Positions 1,890-13,647 of a stretch of 14,261 nt of DNA are shown piece after piece. The notes beneath the pieces are model-generated. The model saw only the letters and a list, made by a program, of their open reading frames with translations, made no database searches and was not told where the DNA came from. Position 1 is the stretch's first letter; each line of letters opens with the position of its first letter. The stretch is from a virus. The stretch lies in the UHGV virus genome UHGV-0247634; one strand, given 5' to 3'. A program made the position numbers and the translations under genes.

Positions 1890-2372
1890 ATGTCAGGACC
1901 CCCGAAAACCCCGCCACGCCTGCATTTGATACGAGGCAACCCCTCAAAGCGCCCCGTTAAAGACCCAAAAAAAACCGCTAAAAAGGATGAAAAAGGTCTC
2001 CCTAAAATTCCGCAGCATTTAGGGGTGCAGGGGAAGTACTGGTTCAGGCGAATGGCGGAAGAACTGAATGCGGAAGGGATCATTTCTCAGCTTGATGCGC
2101 GTGCACTCGAGTTACTGGTGGAAGCCTACACCGAATACCGGCATCACTGCGAAACACTTGATGCTGAGGGTTATACCTACCGCACGGAAACGCAGAACGG
2201 TGATGTGCTGATTAAGGCACACCCGGCTGCTGCGATGAAAGCGGATGCCTGGAAGCGGATCCGGGCGATGCTTGCAGAGTTTGGTATGTCACCGGCAAGC
2301 CGGGCGAAAGTAAATACCGCCGGACCGGATGATGTTGATCCGCTGGCGGAACTTTTAAAAGCGAGAGACTGA
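1890..2372 (+). CDS. terminase small subunit, P27 family
   Basis: 160-aa ORF. N-terminus MSGPPKTPPRLHLIRGNPSKRPVKDPKK matches the characteristic GRPPKP...L.GNPGKRP signature of P27-family small terminases as I recall it. Stop overlaps the large terminase start (ATGA at 2370-2374). Confidence 0.85.
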   Translation: MSGPPKTPPRLHLIRGNPSKRPVKDPKKTAKKDEKGLPKIPQHLGVQGKYWFRRMAEELNAEGIISQLDARALELLVEAYTEYRHHCETLDAEGYTYRTETQNGDVLIKAHPAAAMKADAWKRIRAMLAEFGMSPASRAKVNTAGPDDVDPLAELLKARD

Positions 2373-4129
2373 TGGCAAAAGTGGCTGACGGGATCCGCTA
2401 CGCCGAACGTGTTGTTGCAGGAGAAATTGTCGCTGGCGAATTTGTCCGTCTGGCCTGCCAGCGTTTTCTTGATGATCTGAAGTACGGCGAAGAGCGGGGG
2501 ATTTATTTCAGTGAACCCCGTGCGCAGCACATCCTGAATTTCTACAAATTTGTGCCCCATGTAAAAGGGGCGCTGGCAGGCCAGCCCATTGAACTGATGG
2601 ACTGGCATGTATTTATCCTCATTAATATTTTTGGTTTTGTCATTCCGCTGGTCAATGAAGAGACCGGGGAAGTTGTCATGCGCAGCGATGGCAGCGGACG
2701 TCCGGTGATGGTGCGCCGGTTCCGGACGGCGTACAACGAAGTCGCCCGTAAAAACGCAAAATCAACCCTGTCATCGGGTATCGGCCTGTATATGACGGGG
2801 GCAGATGGTGAAGGCGGGGCTGAGGTGTATTCAGCTGCAACCACGCGTGACCAGGCCAGAATTGTGTTTGAAGACGCCAAAAATATGGTCAGAAAAGCCC
2901 GGTCGACACTCGGGCGATTGTTTGATTTCAACAAGCTGGCGATTTACCAGGAGCAGAGCGCATCAAAATTTGAACCGCTTTCCTCGGATGCAAACAACCT
3001 GGACGGTCTGAACATCCACTGCGCCATTATTGATGAGCTGCATGCACATAAAACCCGTGATGTGTGGGATGTTCTGGAAACGGCAACCGGTGCCCGTCTG
3101 CAGTCCCTGTTATTTGGTATCACCACGGCAGGCTTTAACAAGGAAGGGATCTGTTACGAGCAGCGTGATTACGCCATTAAGGTATTGCGTGGCTATAACA
3201 GCAACGTGGAGGGCGCGGTAAAAGACGACTCCTACTTTGCGATCATTTACACGCTCGATGAGGGAGATGATCCGTTTGATGAAACGGTCTGGCAGAAAGC
3301 GAATCCCGGCCTGGGCATCTGTAAACGCTGGGATGATCTGCGTCGTCTGGCGAAAAAAGCGAAGGAGCAGGTTTCAGCGCGGGTGAATTTTTTCACGAAA
3401 CACATGAATGTGTGGGTCACTGCCGAATCTGCCTGGATGGACATGATTAAGTGGGAGAAGTGCGAATATATTGCTCCACAGCATGAGCTGAAAACCTATC
3501 CCATGTGGGTCGGCGTCGACCTTGCTCATAAGATTGATATCTGTGCGGCGGCAAAACTCTGGCGAACCGATAACGGACATGTTCATGCTGATTTTAAATT
3601 CTGGCTCCCGGAAGGACGGCTGGAGCGGTGCTCGCGGCAGCAGGCAGAACTTTACCGGAAATGGGCCGAGATGGATAAGCTCATCCTGACGGATGGTGAT
3701 GTTATCGATCATGCTCAGATAAAAAGTGACTTACTGGAATGGATTGGTGGTGAAAACCTGAGGGAGCTGGGATTTGATCCGTGGAGCGCGATGCAGTTCA
3801 GTCTGGCGCTGGCTGAAGAAGGGATACCGCTGGTGGAGGTTCCGCAGACGGTCCGCAATCTGTCAGAGGCCATGAAGGAAACGGAATCACTGGTCTATGC
3901 CGGGCGTTTCCATCACAGCAATCACCCGGTCATGAACTGGATGATGTCTAACGTTACGGTAAAACCGGACAAAAACGACAATATCTTCCCGAACAAATCC
4001 ACGCCGGAAGCCAAAATCGACGGTCCTGTTGCGATGTTTACAGCAATGAGCCGGATGCTGGTCAATGGCGGTGAACCGGAGCCGGATCTGTCTGAGCATC
4101 TGGTCAGCGTTGGTATCCGCTCGCTTTAA
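2372..4129 (+). CDS. terminase large subunit (ATPase plus nuclease)
   Basis: 585-aa ORF immediately after the small terminase. Walker B-like hhhhDE ([10 protein letters not shown]) in the N-terminal half and an acidic RNase H-like nuclease motif ([12 protein letters not shown]) in the C-terminal half. Size and position typical of TerL. Confidence 0.93.
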
Positions 4130-4323: not shown

Positions 4324-5564
4324 TGTTTTTCCAGGGGCTTTTTCAACGCAAAAATAACACTCCCGTTACAACACCCGGGATGCTTGCGGAAGAGCTGGGA
4401 TTGTCATACGACACCTATACCGGAAAGCGGATCAGCAGTCAGCGGGCCATGCGGCTGACGGCGGTTTATTCCTGCGTCAGGGTGCTGGCGGAGTCTGTTG
4501 GTATGCTGCCCTGCAGTCTCTACAAAATCACCGGCACCCTTAAAACACGCGCGGTGGATGAACGACTGCATAAGCTGATTTCGGCAAAACCCAATGGCTA
4601 CATGACGCCGCAGGAATTCTGGGAACTGGTCATTGTCTGCCTGTGTCTGCGGGGGAATTTTTACGCCTACAAGGTGAAGGCGCTGGGGGAAGTTGTGGAG
4701 CTTCTTCCGATAGATCCGGGCTGTGTGGAACCGAAGCTGAACAGCCAGTGGCAGCCGGTTTATCAGGTGACGTTTCCGGATGGCTCCGTGGATGTGCTGA
4801 CCCAGAATGAAATCTGGCATGTGCGCACTCTGACGCTGGACGGACTGGTCGGGCTGAATCCCATTGCGTATGCGCGTGAGGCCATTTCACTGGCAGCGGC
4901 AACTGAGGAGCACGGCGCCAGGTTGTTTGGTAACGGCGCTGTGACATCCGGTGTGTTGCGTACGGATCAACAACTTTCTGATCAGGCTTATGCGCGTATC
5001 AAAAAGGACTTTGAGGAACGGCATGTCGGGCTGGGAAATTCTCATCGTCCGATGATTCTGGAAATGGGGCTGGACTGGAAAACGGTGGCACTGAATGCCG
5101 AGGACAGCCAGTTCCTGGAAACCCGCAAGTTTCAGCTGGAAGAAATCTGTCGCCTGTTCCGCGTGCCGCTGCATATGGTGCAGAACACCGATCGCGCCAC
5201 CTTCAACAATATTGAAGAGCTGGGGCTTGGTTTCATTAACTATTCCCTTGTGCCGTATCTGACCCGTATTGAACAGCGGATCAATACAGGGCTGGTCAGG
5301 GAGAGCAAGCAGGGGAAGTTTTACGCCAAATTTAATGCCGGAGCATTGTTGCGTGGCGACATGAAATCCCGCTTTGAAGCGTATGCCACGGGGATCAACT
5401 GGGGGATTTATTCCCCTAATGACTGCCGTGATCTGGAAGATATGAATCCCCGACCGGGCGGTGATGTGTATCTGACACCGATGAACATGACCACCAGTCC
5501 CTCTGCTGGCGATGACAACGGTAAGAAAAAGGAGAGTGGAGATGCAGACAAAACAGCGTCTTGA
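4323..5564 (+). CDS. portal protein, HK97 family
   Basis: 413-aa ORF directly downstream of the large terminase and upstream of the prohead protease; SD GGAGGT precedes the ATG. Size and gene order match HK97-type portal proteins. Confidence 0.88.
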   Translation: MFFQGLFQRKNNTPVTTPGMLAEELGLSYDTYTGKRISSQRAMRLTAVYSCVRVLAESVGMLPCSLYKITGTLKTRAVDERLHKLISAKPNGYMTPQEFWELVIVCLCLRGNFYAYKVKALGEVVELLPIDPGCVEPKLNSQWQPVYQVTFPDGSVDVLTQNEIWHVRTLTLDGLVGLNPIAYAREAISLAAATEEHGARLFGNGAVTSGVLRTDQQLSDQAYARIKKDFEERHVGLGNSHRPMILEMGLDWKTVALNAEDSQFLETRKFQLEEICRLFRVPLHMVQNTDRATFNNIEELGLGFINYSLVPYLTRIEQRINTGLVRESKQGKFYAKFNAGALLRGDMKSRFEAYATGINWGIYSPNDCRDLEDMNPRPGGDVYLTPMNMTTSPSAGDDNGKKKESGDADKTAS

Positions 5565-6192
5565 TATACCGCTGAACCTGAAATCCGTCAGTGATTCCGG
5601 GGAATTTGAAGGTTACGGTTCTGTTTTTGGTGTTAAGGACAGCCACGATGATGTGGTGGTCCCCGGAGCCTTTACCACAACACTCCAGAAATGGAGCGAA
5701 AAAAAGGCGCTGCCTGCGTTGCTCTGGCAGCACCGCATGGATGAGCCCATCGGTGTGTACACCGAAATGAAAGAAGACGATGTCGGGCTTTATGTCAGGG
5801 GGCGATTACTCGTTGATGATGATCCCCTGGCAAAACGTGCACATGCCCATATGAAGGCCGGTTCTTTAACCGGCCTTTCTATTGGCTACATCCTGAAAGA
5901 CTGGGAGTACGACCGTGAAAAAGGGGTATTCCTGCTGAAAGAGATCGACCTGTGGGAGGTCAGTCTGGTGACGTTTCCTTCCAATGATGAGGCACGCATC
6001 AGCGATGTGAAAAATGCGCTGGCGCGTGGGGAGATCCCTGATCAGAAAATTATTGAGCGAGTCCTGCGCGATGTTGGACTCTCGCGAACCCAGGCCAAAG
6101 CATTCATGGCCGGGGGATATGGCGCTTTATCCCTGCGTGATGCTGAGGATGTGGATGCCGCACTGAATGCACTGAAAAATCTTAAATTTTAA
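5542..6192 (+). CDS. prohead maturation protease, HK97 family (peptidase S78/U35)
   Basis: N-terminal region MQTKQRLDIPLNLKSVSDSGEFEGYGSVFGVKDSHDDVVVPGAF is characteristic of HK97 gp4-type prohead proteases. Start chosen at ATG 5542 with SD AGGAG at 5531-5535; the ORF-track start at 5512 is an in-frame upstream extension. Overlaps the portal 3' end by 23 nt. Confidence 0.88.
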   Translation: MQTKQRLDIPLNLKSVSDSGEFEGYGSVFGVKDSHDDVVVPGAFTTTLQKWSEKKALPALLWQHRMDEPIGVYTEMKEDDVGLYVRGRLLVDDDPLAKRAHAHMKAGSLTGLSIGYILKDWEYDREKGVFLLKEIDLWEVSLVTFPSNDEARISDVKNALARGEIPDQKIIERVLRDVGLSRTQAKAFMAGGYGALSLRDAEDVDAALNALKNLKF

Positions 6193-7466: not shown

Positions 7467-7476
7467 GGAGTTTCTG

Positions 7477-7794
7477 ATGGCCGCAATAGTGGAAAAACTC
7501 AGGGCGCAGTGCCGTATTGATACAGATGATGCAACTGATGATGAGTTACTGATGCTGTATTTCCGGGCTGCCTGCCGTAAGGCAGAAAATTTTATCAACC
7601 GTAAGCTTTATGAGGAGACGGTGCCGGAAGGTGATCCTGACGGGGTGCTTATAGCTGATGATGTTTTGCTGGCGCTCATGTTGCTGGTCGGACACTGGTA
7701 CGAAAACCGGGAAAATTCCTCAGATGTCAGCAAAGCACCAGTCCCGTTTGGTTTTTCTTCTCTGCTGGAGCCTTATCGTTTTATTCCTTTGTAG
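7477..7794 (+). CDS. head-tail connector protein (phage gp6-like)
   Basis: N-terminus MAAIVEKLRAQCRIDTDDATDDELLMLY fits the usual pattern of gp6-like connector proteins. Start at ATG 7477 with SD AGGAG 7466-7470 preferred over the ORF-track start at 7432, which would translate through the hairpin. Confidence 0.7.
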   Translation: MAAIVEKLRAQCRIDTDDATDDELLMLYFRAACRKAENFINRKLYEETVPEGDPDGVLIADDVLLALMLLVGHWYENRENSSDVSKAPVPFGFSSLLEPYRFIPL

Positions 7795-7802
7795 GAGGAA
7801 TC

Positions 7803-8141
7803 ATGCAGGCGGGCAGATTACGTGATCGCGTAACTATTCTGAATGTCACCACCGTCCGTTCTCCGTCAGGGCATCCGGTGGAGACAATGACGGAGGGGGC
7901 AACCGTATGGGCAGAAGTTAAGGGGATCAGCGGGAGAGAGAGAATATCAGGAGGTGCAGAAACCGCTCAGGCTACAGTCAGAGTCTGGATGAGATTCCGG
8001 CGCGATGTGACAGCGACTTCACGTCTGAAAGTGCTGACCGGTGCATTTAAAGGGGCCACTCTTGGTATAGAAGGGCCACCAATACCGGATGCACGCGCCA
8101 CCCGGCTTGAAATACTCTGCAGCCTGAAGGGGAATGTGTGA
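7803..8141 (+). CDS. head closure / head-tail adaptor protein
   Basis: 112-aa ORF with strong SD (GGAGGA) and the typical N-terminus (MQAGRLRDRVTILNVTTVRSPSGHPVETMTEGATVWAEV) of SPP1 gp16-type head-tail joining proteins. Follows the connector gene. Confidence 0.7.
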   Translation: MQAGRLRDRVTILNVTTVRSPSGHPVETMTEGATVWAEVKGISGRERISGGAETAQATVRVWMRFRRDVTATSRLKVLTGAFKGATLGIEGPPIPDARATRLEILCSLKGNV

Positions 8142-8587
8142 TGGATTTCAGTCTTGATTTTTCCGGCCTGGCGGATATTGCACGGGATCTGGAGACGCTC
8201 AGCAGGGCAGAAAACAATAAGGTTCTGCGCGATGCCACCCGTGCCGGTGCTGAAGTTATGCGGGATGCAGTTGTTGAACGTGCGCCGGAGCGAACCGGGA
8301 AACTGAAGAAAAATGTGGTTGTTCTCACGCAGCGTTCAAAGCGTCGGGGGGAAATTATCTCGGGTGTCCACATTCGCGGACGGAACCTGCGAACCGGAAA
8401 CAGTGATAACAGCATGAAAGCCAGCGATCCCCGAAATGCGTTTTACTGGCGCTTTGTGGAGCTGGGAACGATAAACATGCCCGCGCATCCGTTTATTCGC
8501 CCGGCTTTCGATACGACAGAGGAACTGGCAGCACAGATTGCCATACAGCGAATGAATCAGGCTATTGATGAGGTCTTAAGTAAATGA
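8141..8587 (+). CDS. HK97 gp10-family neck / tail completion protein
   Basis: 148-aa ORF (MDFSLDFSGLADIARDLETL...TGKLKKNVVV...AFYWRFVELGT...HPFIRPAFD) with typical size and motifs of HK97 gp10-like proteins. ATG 8141 overlaps the upstream stop (TGA 8139-8141). Confidence 0.7.
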   Translation: MDFSLDFSGLADIARDLETLSRAENNKVLRDATRAGAEVMRDAVVERAPERTGKLKKNVVVLTQRSKRRGEIISGVHIRGRNLRTGNSDNSMKASDPRNAFYWRFVELGTINMPAHPFIRPAFDTTEELAAQIAIQRMNQAIDEVLSK

Positions 8588-8928
8588 GAGAGGCCACACT
8601 GTATTCCCTGCTGTCTCCGCTGGCCGGAGGACAGGTCTATCCTTATGTGGTCCCGCTGACGGAGGGAAAGCCTGCGGTATTTCCGCCGTGGCTGGTGTTT
8701 TCTGTGGTGTCTGACACGGCGTCTGATGTGCTTGATGGTCAGGCTGAATCCAGAATTACCGTGCAGATCGATGTCTGGGCAACGGTGCCTGATGACGCAG
8801 ATGATATCCGGGAACAGGCGCTTGATGCTGTGAGGGAACTTGCACCCTCCGTTATTTCTAAAACTCAGGGTTATGATCCTGATTCCCGTCTGAGCAGAGC
8901 CACGCTTGAATTTCAGGTAATAACCTGA
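8584..8928 (+). CDS. tail terminator-like protein (DUF3168-type)
   Basis: 114-aa ORF whose pattern (...VYPYVVP...VFSVVSD...RITVQIDVWA...) resembles DUF3168 tail-terminator-like proteins. ATGA start/stop overlap with the upstream gene; lies directly before the major tail gene. Confidence 0.6.
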   Translation: MREATLYSLLSPLAGGQVYPYVVPLTEGKPAVFPPWLVFSVVSDTASDVLDGQAESRITVQIDVWATVPDDADDIREQALDAVRELAPSVISKTQGYDPDSRLSRATLEFQVIT

Positions 8929-8948: not shown

Positions 8949-8974
8949 ACCCGCCGCTGGCGGGTTTTTATTTT
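8949..8974 (+). terminator. rho-independent terminator-like hairpin plus U-tract between neck genes and major tail gene
   Basis: acccgcc (8949-8955) pairs with ggcgggt (8959-8965), loop gct, followed by tttttatttt. Canonical intrinsic terminator geometry on the + strand. Confidence 0.55.
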
Positions 8975-8986
8975 CAGGAGACGAGT

Positions 8987-9691
8987 ATGTCCTCTAATTT
9001 TGAGCGTTCGCAACTGACGAAAATTATGATTTCGTCTGCACCGGTAACAGCAGAAACCCTGGATTCTGCCAGCTATCTTGGCCTGAGCTGTACAATCAAA
9101 GAGGTGCAGTTTACCGCAGGACAAAAGCAGGATATTGATGTCACCACGCTGTGTTCTGTTGAGCAGGAAAATATTAACGGTCTTGGTGCCGCGTCAGAGA
9201 TTTCCATGTCAGGCAACTTTTACCTTAATGCTGCCCAGAACGCGTTGCGCAGTGCCTATGACAATGACACCACGTATGGCTTTAAAGTTATTTTTCCGTC
9301 AGGAAACGGATTTACCTTTATGGCAGAGGTGCGTCAGCATACCTGGTCTGCAGGAACCAATGGTGTTGTGGCTGCAACGTTTTCCCTGCGCCTGAAAGGT
9401 AAACCTGTGCTGACGACAGAGCCGCTGAAAGTGAAGGTAGATTTAAACAGCACGCTGCAGGTTTCTGCCGGAGCGAAACTCGAAATGGTGGTTGAGGCTG
9501 CCGGTGGTGTGCCGCCTTATTCTTATGTCTGGAAGAAAGGTAGTTCTCCTGTTTCCGGACAGACGGCGGCAACGTTCAGTAAGGCATCAGCAGCATCCGG
9601 TGATGCCGGTGCGTATACCTGCGAGATTTCTGATTCAGCAAGCCCGGTTAACAAAGTGACCACCACTTCCTGCACTGTAACCGTCAGTTAA
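8987..9691 (+). CDS. major tail (tube) protein with C-terminal Ig-like domain
   Basis: 234-aa ORF with SD AGGAG 8976-8980. The N-terminal ~140 aa has a tail-tube-like region (GFKVIFPSGNGFTFMAEV, reminiscent of lambda gpV KIRFPNGT). The C-terminal ~90 aa resembles an Ig-like domain (VKVDLNSTLQVSAG...GGVPPYSYVWKKG...AGAYTCEISDSA...CTVTVS). Immediately precedes the G/GT chaperone genes. Confidence 0.8.
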   Translation: MSSNFERSQLTKIMISSAPVTAETLDSASYLGLSCTIKEVQFTAGQKQDIDVTTLCSVEQENINGLGAASEISMSGNFYLNAAQNALRSAYDNDTTYGFKVIFPSGNGFTFMAEVRQHTWSAGTNGVVAATFSLRLKGKPVLTTEPLKVKVDLNSTLQVSAGAKLEMVVEAAGGVPPYSYVWKKGSSPVSGQTAATFSKASAASGDAGAYTCEISDSASPVNKVTTTSCTVTVS

Positions 9692-10077
9692 TGAGGATGG
9701 ATGTGATGACTAAAAATATCCGTAATCTTGCACTGGCAACGATGTCGGGGTTTCGCCATAAAACCGTTGATGTGCCTGAATGGGAGGGAGCAACGGTTGT
9801 GTTACGGGAACCTTCTGCAGAAGCCTGGTTGCGCTGGCAGGAGATCGTTAAAGCCAGGGAAGATGATACATCGCCATCTGTTGCAGAGCGTGCCCGCCGA
9901 AATCTGGAGGCGGACGTTGAGCTGTTCATTGATGTTCTGTGTGATACCGGGCTGCAACCCGTATTTTCAGAGGATGATCGTGAACAGGTGATTGCCGTGT
10001 ATGGCCCGGTGCATGCCCGGCTTCTTCGCCAGTCTCTGGAACTGATCAGTGATGCCGGAGAGGTTAAAAAAAAGTAG
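9691..10077 (+). CDS. tail assembly chaperone (gpG-like)
   Basis: ORF between the major tail and tape measure genes, ending in a slippery A-run. Alternative start ATG 9706 has SD GAGGA at 9693-9697; ATG 9691 overlaps the upstream stop (TAATG). Confidence 0.75.
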   Translation: MRMDVMTKNIRNLALATMSGFRHKTVDVPEWEGATVVLREPSAEAWLRWQEIVKAREDDTSPSVAERARRNLEADVELFIDVLCDTGLQPVFSEDDREQVIAVYGPVHARLLRQSLELISDAGEVKKK

Positions 10078-10379
10078 CGCTTCCGGGGATGCGTTTTCTG
10101 ATGATGCTGGCGCTCAGGATGGGGCGCACATTGTCAGAGTTACGCCGGGAAATGTCCGCATCAGAAATCATGATGTGGGCAGAATTTGACAGGTTCAGCC
10201 CGCTGGGGGACGAACGGGCTGATATCCGGGCTGCCCAGATTGTTTCAGCTGTTTACGGTGCGCAGGGGGTTAAAGTACCACTGAATGATGTGCTTCTTCA
10301 GTGGGAGCAGGAGCAGACAGAAGGCGCCTCAGATCCATTTGCCGGGCTGGAAAACGCGCTTTTAACCGTGTCTCAGTGA
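9691..10379 (+). CDS. tail assembly chaperone frameshift fusion (gpGT-like), produced by -1 ribosomal frameshift at 10068-10074
   Basis: The zero-frame codons AAA AAG (10069-10074), preceded by A at 10068, form the slippery heptamer A_AAA_AAG just before the G stop (TAG 10075-10077). The -1 frame is open from 10074 through the downstream ORF to its stop at 10379. The distal part (MRFLMMLALRMGRTLSELRREMSASEIMMWAEFDRFSPLGDERADIRAAQIVSAV) resembles the lambda gpT family. Confidence 0.7.
10068..10074 (+). promoter_or_regulatory. programmed -1 ribosomal frameshift slippery heptamer A_AAA_AAG
   Basis: Same heptamer type as the E. coli dnaX frameshift site, located at the 3' end of the gpG-like ORF with the downstream ORF in the -1 frame. 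Confidence 0.65.
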
Positions 10380-10387
10380 GTCAACAT

Positions 10388-10409
10388 AACCGCTTCGGCG
10401 GTTTTTTTT
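10388..10409 (+). terminator. rho-independent terminator-like hairpin (UUCG tetraloop) plus U-tract upstream of the tape measure gene
   Basis: aaccgc (10388-10393) pairs with gcggtt (10398-10403), loop ttcg, followed by a T-run to 10409. Lies 9 nt after the GT stop and 10 nt before the tape measure ATG. Confidence 0.5.
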
Positions 10410-10419
10410 CGTCCGGAGA

Positions 10420-13400
10420 ATGAGTGTGGCGACATTACGTGAACTGATTATTAAAATTTCGGCAAACTCCCGGTCATTTCAGTCAGAGATCTCCCGGGCT
10501 TCGCGTATGGGGCAGGATTACTACCGCACCATGCAGAATGGAAGCCGACAGTCCGCTGCTGCATCCCGTGAAATGCGGCGTGCACTGGCAGAAGTGACGG
10601 ATCAGATAAATACAGCTAAATCTTCGGCACTGAACATGGCGGGGGCATTTGCCGGGGCTTTTGCTACCGGTCATCTTATTTCTCTCGCCGATGAGTGGAA
10701 TTCAGTCAATGCCCGTCTGAAGCAGGCCTCACAGTCCAGTGATGATTTTCAGGCATCACAACGCGAATTAATGGCAATCAGCCAGAGAACGGGGACGGCT
10801 TTTTCTGATAACGCCAGCCTTTTTGCCCGCTCTGCAGCTTCCATGCGGGAGTATGGCTACAGTTCTGAGGAGGTACTGAAAGTCAACGAGGCGATCTCCA
10901 CGGGCCTGAAATTATCCGGTGCCAGTACAGCAGAAGCCAGTTCGGTGATCACGCAGTTCAGTCAGGCACTGGCGCAGGGAGTGCTGCGCGGTGAAGAGTT
11001 TAACTCGGTGAATGAGAACGGCGATCGTGTTATTCGTGCGCTGGCTGCGGGAATGGGCGTTGCCCGTAAGGATCTGAAGGCCATGGCGGATAACGGAAAA
11101 CTGACCGCCGATAAGGTTGTTCCTGCACTGATTAGTCAGCTTGGGGCATTACGTGATGAATATGCGGCAATGCCTGATACGGTTTCATCCTCTGCAACCA
11201 AAGTTGAAAACGCCTTTATGGCCTGGGTTGGTGGTGCGAACGAGGCAAGCGGAGTGACGAAGACGCTCTCCGGTGTGCTGAATAGTATTGCAGGCAATAT
11301 TGACACCGTGGCAACCGCTGCCGGTGCACTGGTTGCCGTCGGGGTAGCCCGATATTTTGGCAATATGGCATCTTCTGCTGGCTCTGCAACTGCCGGGCTA
11401 ATCACTGCGGCCAGAAACGAAGTGGCTCTTGCTGAAGCGCAACTTCGGGGGACACAGATAGCAACTGCCAGGGCGCGTGCGGCGGTTTATCGTGCGCAAC
11501 AGGCGGTTGTTGCTGCTCGCGGTACCGAAAGGCAGGCCGCAGCAGAAGCGAAGCTGACAGCTGCCCAGGCGTCACTTACCCGTAATATTGCGGCCAGAAC
11601 AGCGGCACAGACAACGCTGAATACTGTCACGTCAGTGGGGAGTCGTTTATTAAGTGGCGCGCTGGGGCTGGTTGGTGGTGTGCCGGGACTCGTCATGCTG
11701 GGGGCTGCGGCCTGGTACACGATGTATCAGAATCAGGAGCAGGCCAGAGAATCTGCACGCCAGTATGCCGCAACAATCGACGAAATTCGCCAGAAAACGT
11801 CGGCAATGTCGCTTCCTGAAGCGTCAGATAATGAGGAAAAAACGCGACAGGCACTGAAGGAGCAGAACAGGTTAATTGACGAGCAGAAAAGTAAGATTAA
11901 ATCCTTACAGGAAAAAATTGCTGGCTATCAGTATGTGCTGGCAAATCCGGGCTGGACAACCGATAACGGTTTTATGATAAACCACATGACGTCGGTAAAA
12001 ACTGTCACAGAAGGGCTTGCAGAAGCAACAAATCAACTGGCAGTTGAACAGTCTCGCCTCACTCAAATGCAGGGCAAAGCGCAATCCATTCAGGATGTGC
12101 TTGCCGGGCTGGAGGAGCGACGGGTGGCGTTGATCCGTCAACAGGCAGCGGAACAAAACAAAGCGTATCAGTCCCTGTTGATCATGAATGGGCAGCATAC
12201 CGAGTTTAATCGCCTTCTCGGGCTTGGTAATGAATTACTTCAGCAGCGACAGGGGCTGGTGAATGTACCGTTACGGCTACCACAGGCAACCCTGGATGAT
12301 AAACAGCAGACCGCACTGAATAACAGCAAGCGCGAACTGGCTCTGTCCCGCCTGAAGGGGGAAGCGCGTGAGCGTGCCCGACTGGGCTATGCTGCGGATG
12401 ATCTCGGCTTTGTGGGAGAGGCGTATCAGACAGCCAGACAGAATTATATCAATAACTCACTGGATGCCTGGCGAAATAACCAGGCAAATAAACCGCATAA
12501 AAAAACCGAAGCGGAAAAAACAGAGGATATTTATAAACGACTGATTAAACAGCAAAAAGAACAGATAGCACTGGCAGGGCAGAATACTGAACTGGCTAAG
12601 ATGAAATATCAGGTCAGTCAGGGCGAATTATCAACCCTGTCAGAAGCGCAGAAAAAAACGCTTTTGCAGAATGCAGCACTCATCGACCAGAAAAAGATTC
12701 GTGAGCAGCTTGCTGCGTATGAGAGCAGTCTGGCGGACAGTAATGCCAGTGCCCGGGCATCTGACGACGCGCAGTTGCTGGGATATGGTGAAGGCTCACG
12801 GATGCGTGAACGACTCCAGGAAATGTGGAGTATCCGGCAGACGTTTGAGCAGAAAAATAACGAGCTGCTGAGACAGTATCAGGCCGGAGAAATTGAAGAA
12901 GCCCTGTGGAAACAGGAGAAAGAACTGAATAAAAAATATCTGGAAGAGCGTCTCAGCGATCAGCATGATTATTATGCAAAGGCCGATGCTTTACGTAATA
13001 ACTGGAATGCCGGACTCCAGGAGGGACTGAGCAACTGGGCAGACAGTGCCACCGATTATGCTTCACAGGCGGCAGATGCTGTCGTTTCCACGATGGACGG
13101 GCTGGTATCAAATATTTCCGATGCACTGGCCGGGAATGTTGTGGAGTGGAGGAACTGGGGGAGTTCAGTTCTCCGGGAAGTTTCAAAAATTCTGATGAAT
13201 GCGGCCATTGTTAACGGACTGAAGTCACTCTCCGGTGCCGGAGGGTGGCTTGGTACGGTCGGCGGATGGATTTCGGGGGCGGTGGCAAACGCAAAAGGTG
13301 GTGTTTACACATCGGCAAATCTGAGTGCTTACAGTAACACTATTGTGGATACACCGACGTATTTTGCTTTTGCGAAAGGTGCCGGGCTGATGGGCGAGGC

Positions 13401-13647
13401 CGGGCCTGAAGCTATCATGCCACTGACACGGGCAGCGGACGGCTCTCTTGGGGTCAGAGCCATTGGCAATGTGAATGGTGGCGGTGGATTTGTTTATTCT
13501 CCCGTGTATCACATCAGCATTCAGAATCAAGGGAGCAATGGCGAGATAGATGCGCGCTCAGCCAGGGGACTGGTGGATCTGATCGACAGCAGGGTTGTGT
13601 CAATTATGCAGTCATCGCGTCGGGATGGAGGATTATACAGTGCCTGA
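10420..13647 (+). CDS. tail tape measure protein
   Basis: 1075-aa ORF following the G/GT pair. Ala/Gln-rich, predicted helical sequence with an internal hydrophobic segment (LLSGALGLVGGVPGLVMLGAAAWY) and a Gly-rich C-terminal region. Position and size typical of siphovirus tape measure proteins. Confidence 0.9.
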   Translation: MSVATLRELIIKISANSRSFQSEISRASRMGQDYYRTMQNGSRQSAAASREMRRALAEVTDQINTAKSSALNMAGAFAGAFATGHLISLADEWNSVNARLKQASQSSDDFQASQRELMAISQRTGTAFSDNASLFARSAASMREYGYSSEEVLKVNEAISTGLKLSGASTAEASSVITQFSQALAQGVLRGEEFNSVNENGDRVIRALAAGMGVARKDLKAMADNGKLTADKVVPALISQLGALRDEYAAMPDTVSSSATKVENAFMAWVGGANEASGVTKTLSGVLNSIAGNIDTVATAAGALVAVGVARYFGNMASSAGSATAGLITAARNEVALAEAQLRGTQIATARARAAVYRAQQAVVAARGTERQAAAEAKLTAAQASLTRNIAARTAAQTTLNTVTSVGSRLLSGALGLVGGVPGLVMLGAAAWYTMYQNQEQARESARQYAATIDEIRQKTSAMSLPEASDNEEKTRQALKEQNRLIDEQKSKIKSLQEKIAGYQYVLANPGWTTDNGFMINHMTSVKTVTEGLAEATNQLAVEQSRLTQMQGKAQSIQDVLAGLEERRVALIRQQAAEQNKAYQSLLIMNGQHTEFNRLLGLGNELLQQRQGLVNVPLRLPQATLDDKQQTALNNSKRELALSRLKGEARERARLGYAADDLGFVGEAYQTARQNYINNSLDAWRNNQANKPHKKTEAEKTEDIYKRLIKQQKEQIALAGQNTELAKMKYQVSQGELSTLSEAQKKTLLQNAALIDQKKIREQLAAYESSLADSNASARASDDAQLLGYGEGSRMRERLQEMWSIRQTFEQKNNELLRQYQAGEIEEALWKQEKELNKKYLEERLSDQHDYYAKADALRNNWNAGLQEGLSNWADSATDYASQAADAVVSTMDGLVSNISDALAGNVVEWRNWGSSVLREVSKILMNAAIVNGLKSLSGAGGWLGTVGGWISGAVANAKGGVYTSANLSAYSNTIVDTPTYFAFAKGAGLMGEAGPEAIMPLTRAADGSLGVRAIGNVNGGGGFVYSPVYHISIQNQGSNGEIDARSARGLVDLIDSRVVSIMQSSRRDGGLYSA

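Follow-up and report, generated by a model that had tools for sequence, protein, structure and literature searches.

In the G/GT class of tail assembly chaperones, G is made in large excess over the GT fusion at a constant ratio, and both products are needed for tail assembly and are absent from virions. Xu, Hendrix and Duda reportedly described this G/GT frameshift in 2004 as conserved among long-tailed phages, and Levin et al. are said to have found in 1993 that lambda T is made only as GT. In the E. coli dnaX gene (tau/gamma), strong elements stimulate the shift: an SD-like sequence lies about 10 nt upstream of the site and a stem-loop follows it, and shifting to a nearby stop is about 50%. 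In lambda, ribosomes shift by −1 close to the 3′ end of G to give the GT fusion, and the ratio of G to GT is 30:1; tape measure protein binding resides in G and the G portion of GT, and major tail protein binding in the T part (PMC5009743). [quoted passage not shown] The heptamer is thus highly shifty because a single tRNA-Lys decodes it. Among deposited phages related to the locus described here, a −1 join is annotated in HK97, HK106 and KS9. In HK97 (NC_002167), gp13 occupies 7472..7858, and a two-piece CDS joined over 7472..8145 is recorded as "translated due to a -1 frameshift".

We analyzed a 14,261-nucleotide stretch of the virus genome UHGV-0247634 (the window). It corresponds to the late operon of an E. 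coli prophage that resembles HK97. Family matches, strong throughout, identified a complete HK97-type head-tail module. Its 5′ part comprises, in order, M15 endolysin-like, HNH, small terminase and large terminase genes, followed by the head genes for portal, S78 prohead protease and HK97-fold capsid, and then by connector, head-completion, gp10-like and gp17 tail-completion genes. The 3′ part carries the major tail protein with an Ig-like domain, the G and T ORFs, a 1075-aa tape measure protein and a minor tail protein. A 901-base query found matches in 902 of 5426 complete E. coli genomes, every match being chromosomal, and the same query hit 11 Escherichia phage records among deposited phages at 95–96% identity. 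The features around the G/T junction are as follows.

8987..9691, plus strand: major tail (tube) protein gene with a C-terminal Ig-like domain (phrog_158, E=5e-107)
9706..10077, plus strand: G-type tail assembly chaperone gene, 123 aa (Pfam Phage_TAC_1, E=3.9e-58, 195.2 bits, cut-off 25)
10065..10067, plus strand: TAA stop of the −1 (T) frame, directly 5′ of the heptamer
10066..10073, plus strand: eight-A run holding the slippery site; possible minor RNA-polymerase slippage tract
10068..10074, plus strand: slippery heptamer A_AAA_AAG, in the X_XXY_YYZ phase of G and forming its last two sense codons
10074..10379, plus strand: T extension, 101 codons plus TGA 10377–10379 (Pfam Phage_tail_T, E=5e-20, 72.1 bits, cut-off 25.9)
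10075..10077, plus strand: TAG stop of G, directly 3′ of the heptamer
10089..10091, plus strand: ATG taken as the T start by ORF finders; its Met is not conserved (V/I/T/L in other lineages)
10388..10411, plus strand: terminator-like hairpin with a T-run (AACCGC-TTCG-GCGGTT), between the T stop and the tape measure start
10426..13647, plus strand: tape measure protein gene (Pfam Phage_HK97_TLTM, E=5.6e-93; also TMP_3 and Tape_meas_lam_C)

The synteny of the locus was fixed by the major tail gene upstream of G, whose product matched Pfam Ig_2/Ig_3 and, weakly, Phage_TTP_11. Both chaperone ORFs lie between this gene and the tape measure gene, as in the G/GT class, and the tape measure protein is the presumed client of G/GT. 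The G ORF also opens at ATG 9691 (128 aa), and in that version the Phage_TAC_1 match begins at residue 6. Most likely, however, G starts at ATG 9706 rather than at ATG 9691, as judged from the upstream sequence and from relatives: ATG 9706 has the SD GAGGATGG (−8.5 kcal/mol, ending at −5), ATG 9691 has none, and relatives annotate G from the position equivalent to 9706. Besides Phage_TAC_1, no chaperone family in Pfam matched the window G at E≤0.01. For the tape measure gene, GTG 10426 is the likely start in preference to the ORF-opening ATG 10420, given a correctly spaced SD (GGAG) and the equivalent annotated start in relatives.

Two terminator-like hairpins were observed in this part of the operon. 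The one at 10388..10411 is context and lies outside the shift signal. A hairpin with a T-run occurs at the same place, with other stems (ACCCGC...GCGGGT, AACCTGC...GCAGGTT), in HK97, HK106 and one Stx phage, and in HK97 and HK106 this hairpin before the tape measure gene carries a terminator annotation. Such a conserved terminator inside a late operon might reduce expression of the tape measure gene compared with G; alternatively, it might be left over from a moron insertion. The other, a strong hairpin with a T-run (ACCCGCC-GCT-GGCGGGT, 8949–8974), lies just 5′ of the major tail gene, and a putative terminator is annotated at the equivalent position of HK97.

The 3′ end of G reads ...GGA GAG GTT AAA AAA AAG TAG CGC TTC CGG GGA TGC..., and the protein ends in ...DAGEVKKK*. 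The second ORF lies in the −1 frame over the end of G, with the slippery sequence inside the overlap in G phase. Since the TAA of the −1 frame (10065–10067) and the TAG of the zero frame (10075–10077) bracket the heptamer, the overlap is confined to it, and both frames are open only over the 7 nt of 10068–10074. After its stop the −1 frame encodes KKVALPGMRFLMM... (in a longer reading, KKVALPGMRFLMMLALRMGRTLSEL...) and stays open to the TGA at 10377–10379. A previous sequence-only reading had proposed A_AAA_AAG at the last two G codons with a −1 frame continuously open into T, and both points were borne out: the heptamer is present at 10068–10074 in the phase of G, and no stop occurs from 10068 to TGA 10377. 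That reading had also pointed out that the list of ORFs missed the fusion, and T was indeed entered there solely as a separate 96-aa ORF, 10089..10379.

A simulated shift produced a GT protein of 224 aa, join(9706..10074,10074..10379). Its predicted junction, EVKKK-VALPGMRF, agrees with the one anticipated from the letters alone; the sequence after EVKKK is VALPGMRFLMMLALRMGRTL..., and the predicted Glu-C peptide across the G-T junction is VKKKVALPGMRFLMMLALRMGRTLSE. The VALPGMR peptide is obtainable only by −1-frame translation upstream of ATG 10089. When the simulated GT was aligned to phrog_14766, which holds annotated fusions, residues 1–221 of 224 matched in one stretch (312 bits, E=4e-93), whereas the separate halves fell on successive parts of the family, G on positions 1–121 and T on positions 129–221. 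Thus, G and T both scored above the curated cut-offs of their families, and the fused product aligned unbroken to annotated fusions, as in the HK97 gp13/gp14 family. NCBIfam had no model matching a fused GT protein, and the exact 224-aa GT was absent from a collection of 15 billion proteins in which G and T are present separately. The exact-match look-up placed G (123 aa) together with T sequences of 92 and 96 aa in one 90%-identity cluster of 99 proteins, even though G and T are unrelated in sequence. This shared cluster could be a reporting quirk, or G and T could be linked through a fused member outside the 15 members listed.

Within the conserved G/GT frameshift, the locus belongs to the HK97 gp13/gp14 branch. 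The window and HK97 share identical Pfam families, a G that is 65% identical to gp13, T in the −1 frame, a fusion of 224 aa, the position of G/T between the major tail and tape measure genes, a terminator-like hairpin before the tape measure gene and a slip site at equal distance before LALRMGRTLSEL. They differ in the site itself. HK97 has a 49-nt overlap in which G_GAA_AAG, five codons ahead of the stop, is the sole slippery element in phase, whereas the window has a full A_AAA_AAG abutting the stop and an overlap of 7 nt. The moron gene gp15, which HK97 carries between T and its tape measure gene, has no counterpart in the window. In the Stx-converting and related lambdoid prophages of E. 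coli O157 (for example Stx2a_WGPS8 and YYZ-2008), G is 66–67% identical to that of the window, and A_AAA_AAG likewise stands directly before TAG with T in the −1 frame; their A run, however, is only six long (AGA AAA AAG), and their overlap spans 22 nt. With lambda G/GT the window shares mechanism and logic, and its T part belongs to Phage_tail_T ("Minor tail protein T"), a family named for lambda gene T. Lambda gpG probably belongs to a Pfam family other than the Phage_TAC_1 of the window G. The lambda slip site is G_GGA_AAG rather than A_AAA_AAG, and mEp390, a relative of the window G, has the lambda heptamer.

The heptamer is identical to that of dnaX and is decoded by the same single tRNA-Lys. 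Unlike in dnaX, however, the shifted frame encodes a 101-residue domain, and no downstream structure stands out. No downstream stimulatory RNA structure was found in the 86 nt of 10075–10160 (z=−1.4; 18 of 200 shuffled sequences folded equally well). An SD-like GGAGAGGT sits only 2 nt from the heptamer, much closer than the dnaX element, and other lineages do not conserve it; in 11 lineages, pairing to the anti-SD 5′ of the site was not above the in-gene background (P ~0.12), giving no sign of a conserved upstream SD-like stimulator. A stimulated cassette of the dnaX type was therefore rejected, because no downstream stem-loop stands out and the SD-like element is 2 nt away, rather than about 10–14 nt, and not enriched across lineages.

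We then compared the site with the background of the window. The bare AAAAAAG string occurs 7 times versus 3.5 expected, and in-phase X_XXY_YYZ heptamers number 14 per 3800 codons of the 13 main genes, about 1/256, which is the random rate. Only one of these 14, the A_AAA_AAG at 10068, leads into a long −1 ORF with a recognized domain (Phage_tail_T; 101 codons). The TerS/TerL boundary holds the single further case of a heptamer ahead of a long −1 ORF. There, T_TTA_AAA lies in phase (window 2354–2374) three codons before the small-terminase stop, with the large-terminase gene in the −1 frame (589 codons). Ordinary coupling explains this arrangement because stop and start overlap as TGATG; from the sequence, a rare TerS-TerL fusion is conceivable. 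A second in-phase A_AAA_AAG was seen at 5700–5706 within the S78 prohead protease gene (5512–6192; codons GAA AAA AAG). A shift there would find the −1 frame open for 12 more codons only and truncate the protease near residue 65, and this copy is probably incidental. The lambda G/GT heptamer G_GGA_AAG also occurs in phase, at 8664–8670 in the gp17-like tail completion gene (8584–8928), where the −1 frame is open for 14 codons only.

To compare lineages, 270 related loci were collected, of which 266 were scorable and gave 65 distinct junction sequences. The shift was simulated at the most 3′ in-phase A_AAN, and the −1-frame peptides of 11 lineages were aligned. Because scans seeded with T proteins from Halomonas and Serratia phages returned few loci (3 and 12, respectively), the lineage survey comprises 11–14 representatives, not hundreds. 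All 11 lineages, which range from E. coli to phages of Burkholderia and Halomonas, have an A_AAG-type site in phase, 8–11 codons 5′ of a conserved LALRxGxTL. A_AAA_AAG occurs in phase within the overlap of Stx phages, Serratia OS31 and its relatives, and Burkholderia RY5 and L188; the overlap site of mEp390 is an in-phase G_GGA_AAG, and KS9 and the Halomonas phage have A_AAA_AAA or A_AAA_AAC in phase. The HK97 clade (G_GAA_AAG) and the Klebsiella clade (A_GCA_AAG) retain only the tetranucleotide A_AAG, with no canonical heptamer in phase; as A_AAG suffices as a minimal −1 site, these variants are covered as well. Across 14 loci representing the surveyed lineages, in-phase heptamers numbered 12 in 382 codons of the G/T overlap versus 6 in 2949 codons of the G and T bodies, a roughly 15-fold higher density.

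The peptides on the two frames behaved differently at this site. The zero-frame tail 3′ of the site comprises 0 to 11 unrelated residues in the 11 lineages, whereas the −1-frame residues from the site to the first ATG follow a conserved V/A..P(G)xxF pattern whose Pro is invariant. The first ATG lies downstream of these conserved Pro/xxF residues in HK97, mEp390, Stx, Halomonas and Burkholderia RY5. Selection on −1-frame residues ahead of the ATG requires that they be translated, and therefore that ribosomes enter from the G frame. The anatomy of the locus, its homology, the phase of the site and the conservation of both the site and the −1-frame peptide were all directly observed, and gene order, domains, phase and position of the slip site and comparative conservation together support the earlier proposal that this is the conserved G/GT frameshift.

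Among 80 close IMG/VR relatives, 78 keep GTT-A8-G-TAG, one has A9-TAG (A_AAA_AAA) and one has A7; synonymous and conservative changes surround the invariant site, and the 15-nt linker is free of stops and indels in all 80. The closest complete genome, E. coli ETEC1738, also carries an A7 allele, and PGAP flags its G as a pseudogene. We considered whether A7 fuses G directly to T and ruled this out: with one A deleted, G continues in the +1 frame as a 160-aa ORF, from which T is unreachable by a −1 shift. The A7 alleles of ETEC1738 and the one IMG/VR relative are homopolymer sequencing errors or defective prophage alleles. In the Klebsiella prophage clade, A_GCA_AAG stands directly before TAA and the overlap is exactly 7 nt. 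An ATG two bases after the stop would give MPGMQFLM... in this clade and so keep Pro-Gly, which makes a separate start of T more plausible than it is in the window.

Could T instead be made without any fusion, by re-initiation at ATG 10089 or 10101 after TAG 10075, with the heptamer incidental? ORF finders and the public annotation examined do call T a separate gene, and all 9 records inspected from the window clade and the sister Stx clade, RefSeq/PGAP entries included, give G and T as two genes. Coupling would be possible at the 11–23 nt that separate these starts from the G stop, the Met at the position of ATG 10101 is conserved in most lineages, and in Serratia and Burkholderia phages the conserved Met overlaps the G stop as TGATG. 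The start signals themselves nevertheless argue against re-initiation. No properly spaced SD precedes ATG 10089, 10101 or 10104; the only purine run at ATG 10089 is a GGGG abutting it (−4.5 kcal/mol, ending at −1), at a distance of 12 nt from ATG 10101. T thus appears to lack translation start signals of its own. Initiation at ATG 10089, which the sequence-only reading had set against the fusion, is disfavored by this abutting GGGG, by the replacement of its Met elsewhere and by the conserved residues 5′ of the first ATG; this ATG is, as far as the sequence tells, probably an internal Met codon of GT. KS9 lacks the Met at the 10101 position, and the −1-frame residues 5′ of the conserved Met are kept from E. 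coli to Burkholderia phages, unlike the overlapping G tails. The distance from slip site to T domain is fixed across lineages, whereas annotators place the T start inconsistently, at lengths of 86, 87, 89, 92, 96 and 99 aa in public records. We consider production of T without any fusion highly improbable; a degree of coupled initiation at T beside the fusion is conceivable from the sequence, although nothing favors it. Loss of function in a decaying prophage that no longer expresses T is extremely improbable. Although the locus resides in bacterial chromosomes, and occasional A7 alleles, one of them in a PGAP-flagged pseudogene, break the arrangement, the head-tail module is intact throughout and its families match strongly, relatives at 95–96% identity are deposited as phage records, and the site is invariant in 78 of 80 relatives despite the changes nearby.

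The A8 run raises a different question, whether GT arises mainly by transcriptional slippage, with RNA polymerase adding one A on the run (template T8). The resulting A9 mRNA, GTT AAA AAA AAA GTA..., would yield the same EVKKK-VALPG fusion by ordinary translation, and the A8 tract is kept in the 78 of 80 close relatives. Slippage by bacterial RNA polymerase is efficient where 9 A or T stand in a row, and Thermus dnaX relies on it rather than on ribosomal shifting (PMC5009743). However, those efficient cases have runs one base longer than A8, and the tracts of sister lineages are too short or interrupted for RNA polymerase, namely AGA AAA AAG in Stx, G_GGA_AAG in mEp390, G_GAA_AAG in HK97 and A_GCA_AAG in Klebsiella. 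Because these tracts cannot support polymerase slippage, the conserved feature is the in-phase A_AAG codon context, a ribosomal signal, and the shiftiness of A_AAA_AAG with the single tRNA-Lys of E. coli points the same way. Slippage by RNA polymerase as the main source of GT is therefore very unlikely, and on the sequence evidence it would be at most a minor contributor in the window clade. Mass spectrometry of the junction peptide cannot separate the two routes, because polymerase slippage gives an identical protein. It is unlikely, too, that the A8 tract serves ribosomal −1 shifting and polymerase slippage together, so that transcription and translation would both set the GT:G ratio. If it did, the bracketing TAA and TAG would confine every productive event to one 7-nt window, a small mechanistic variation on the G/GT theme.

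A programmed −1 frameshift on A_AAA_AAG that yields G and a 224-aa GT is thus very probably the correct reading of the locus. We infer the shifting, its frequency and the roles of the proteins as follows. Most ribosomes would finish G (9706–10077) at TAG 10075 and release the 123-aa chaperone, while a minority would slip one base back on A_AAA_AAG (10068–10074). In one route, a tandem slip in the course of decoding or translocation, the two tRNA-Lys paired with AAA and AAG would each re-pair with AAA. Alternatively, with the UAG stop in the A site awaiting release factor, the P-site tRNA-Lys may move back from AAG onto AAA. Both routes are possible, and give the same protein, because TAG directly follows the heptamer. 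After either slip, translation would continue as GTA GCG CTT... to TGA 10377, producing the 224-aa GT. The lambda analogy suggests that the tape measure protein would be coated by G and by the G portion of GT, and that the T part would recruit the major tail protein. The low, fixed GT:G ratio that tail assembly needs would be set by the frequency of the shift.

This is a known mechanism in a known family, and it adds nothing to the established G/GT model. Its value lies mainly in annotation. The real second product of the locus is most likely the 224-aa GT, and the locus is common in E. coli. A simple rule, an in-phase A_AAG at a fixed distance 5′ of LALRxGxTL, would correct many entries.
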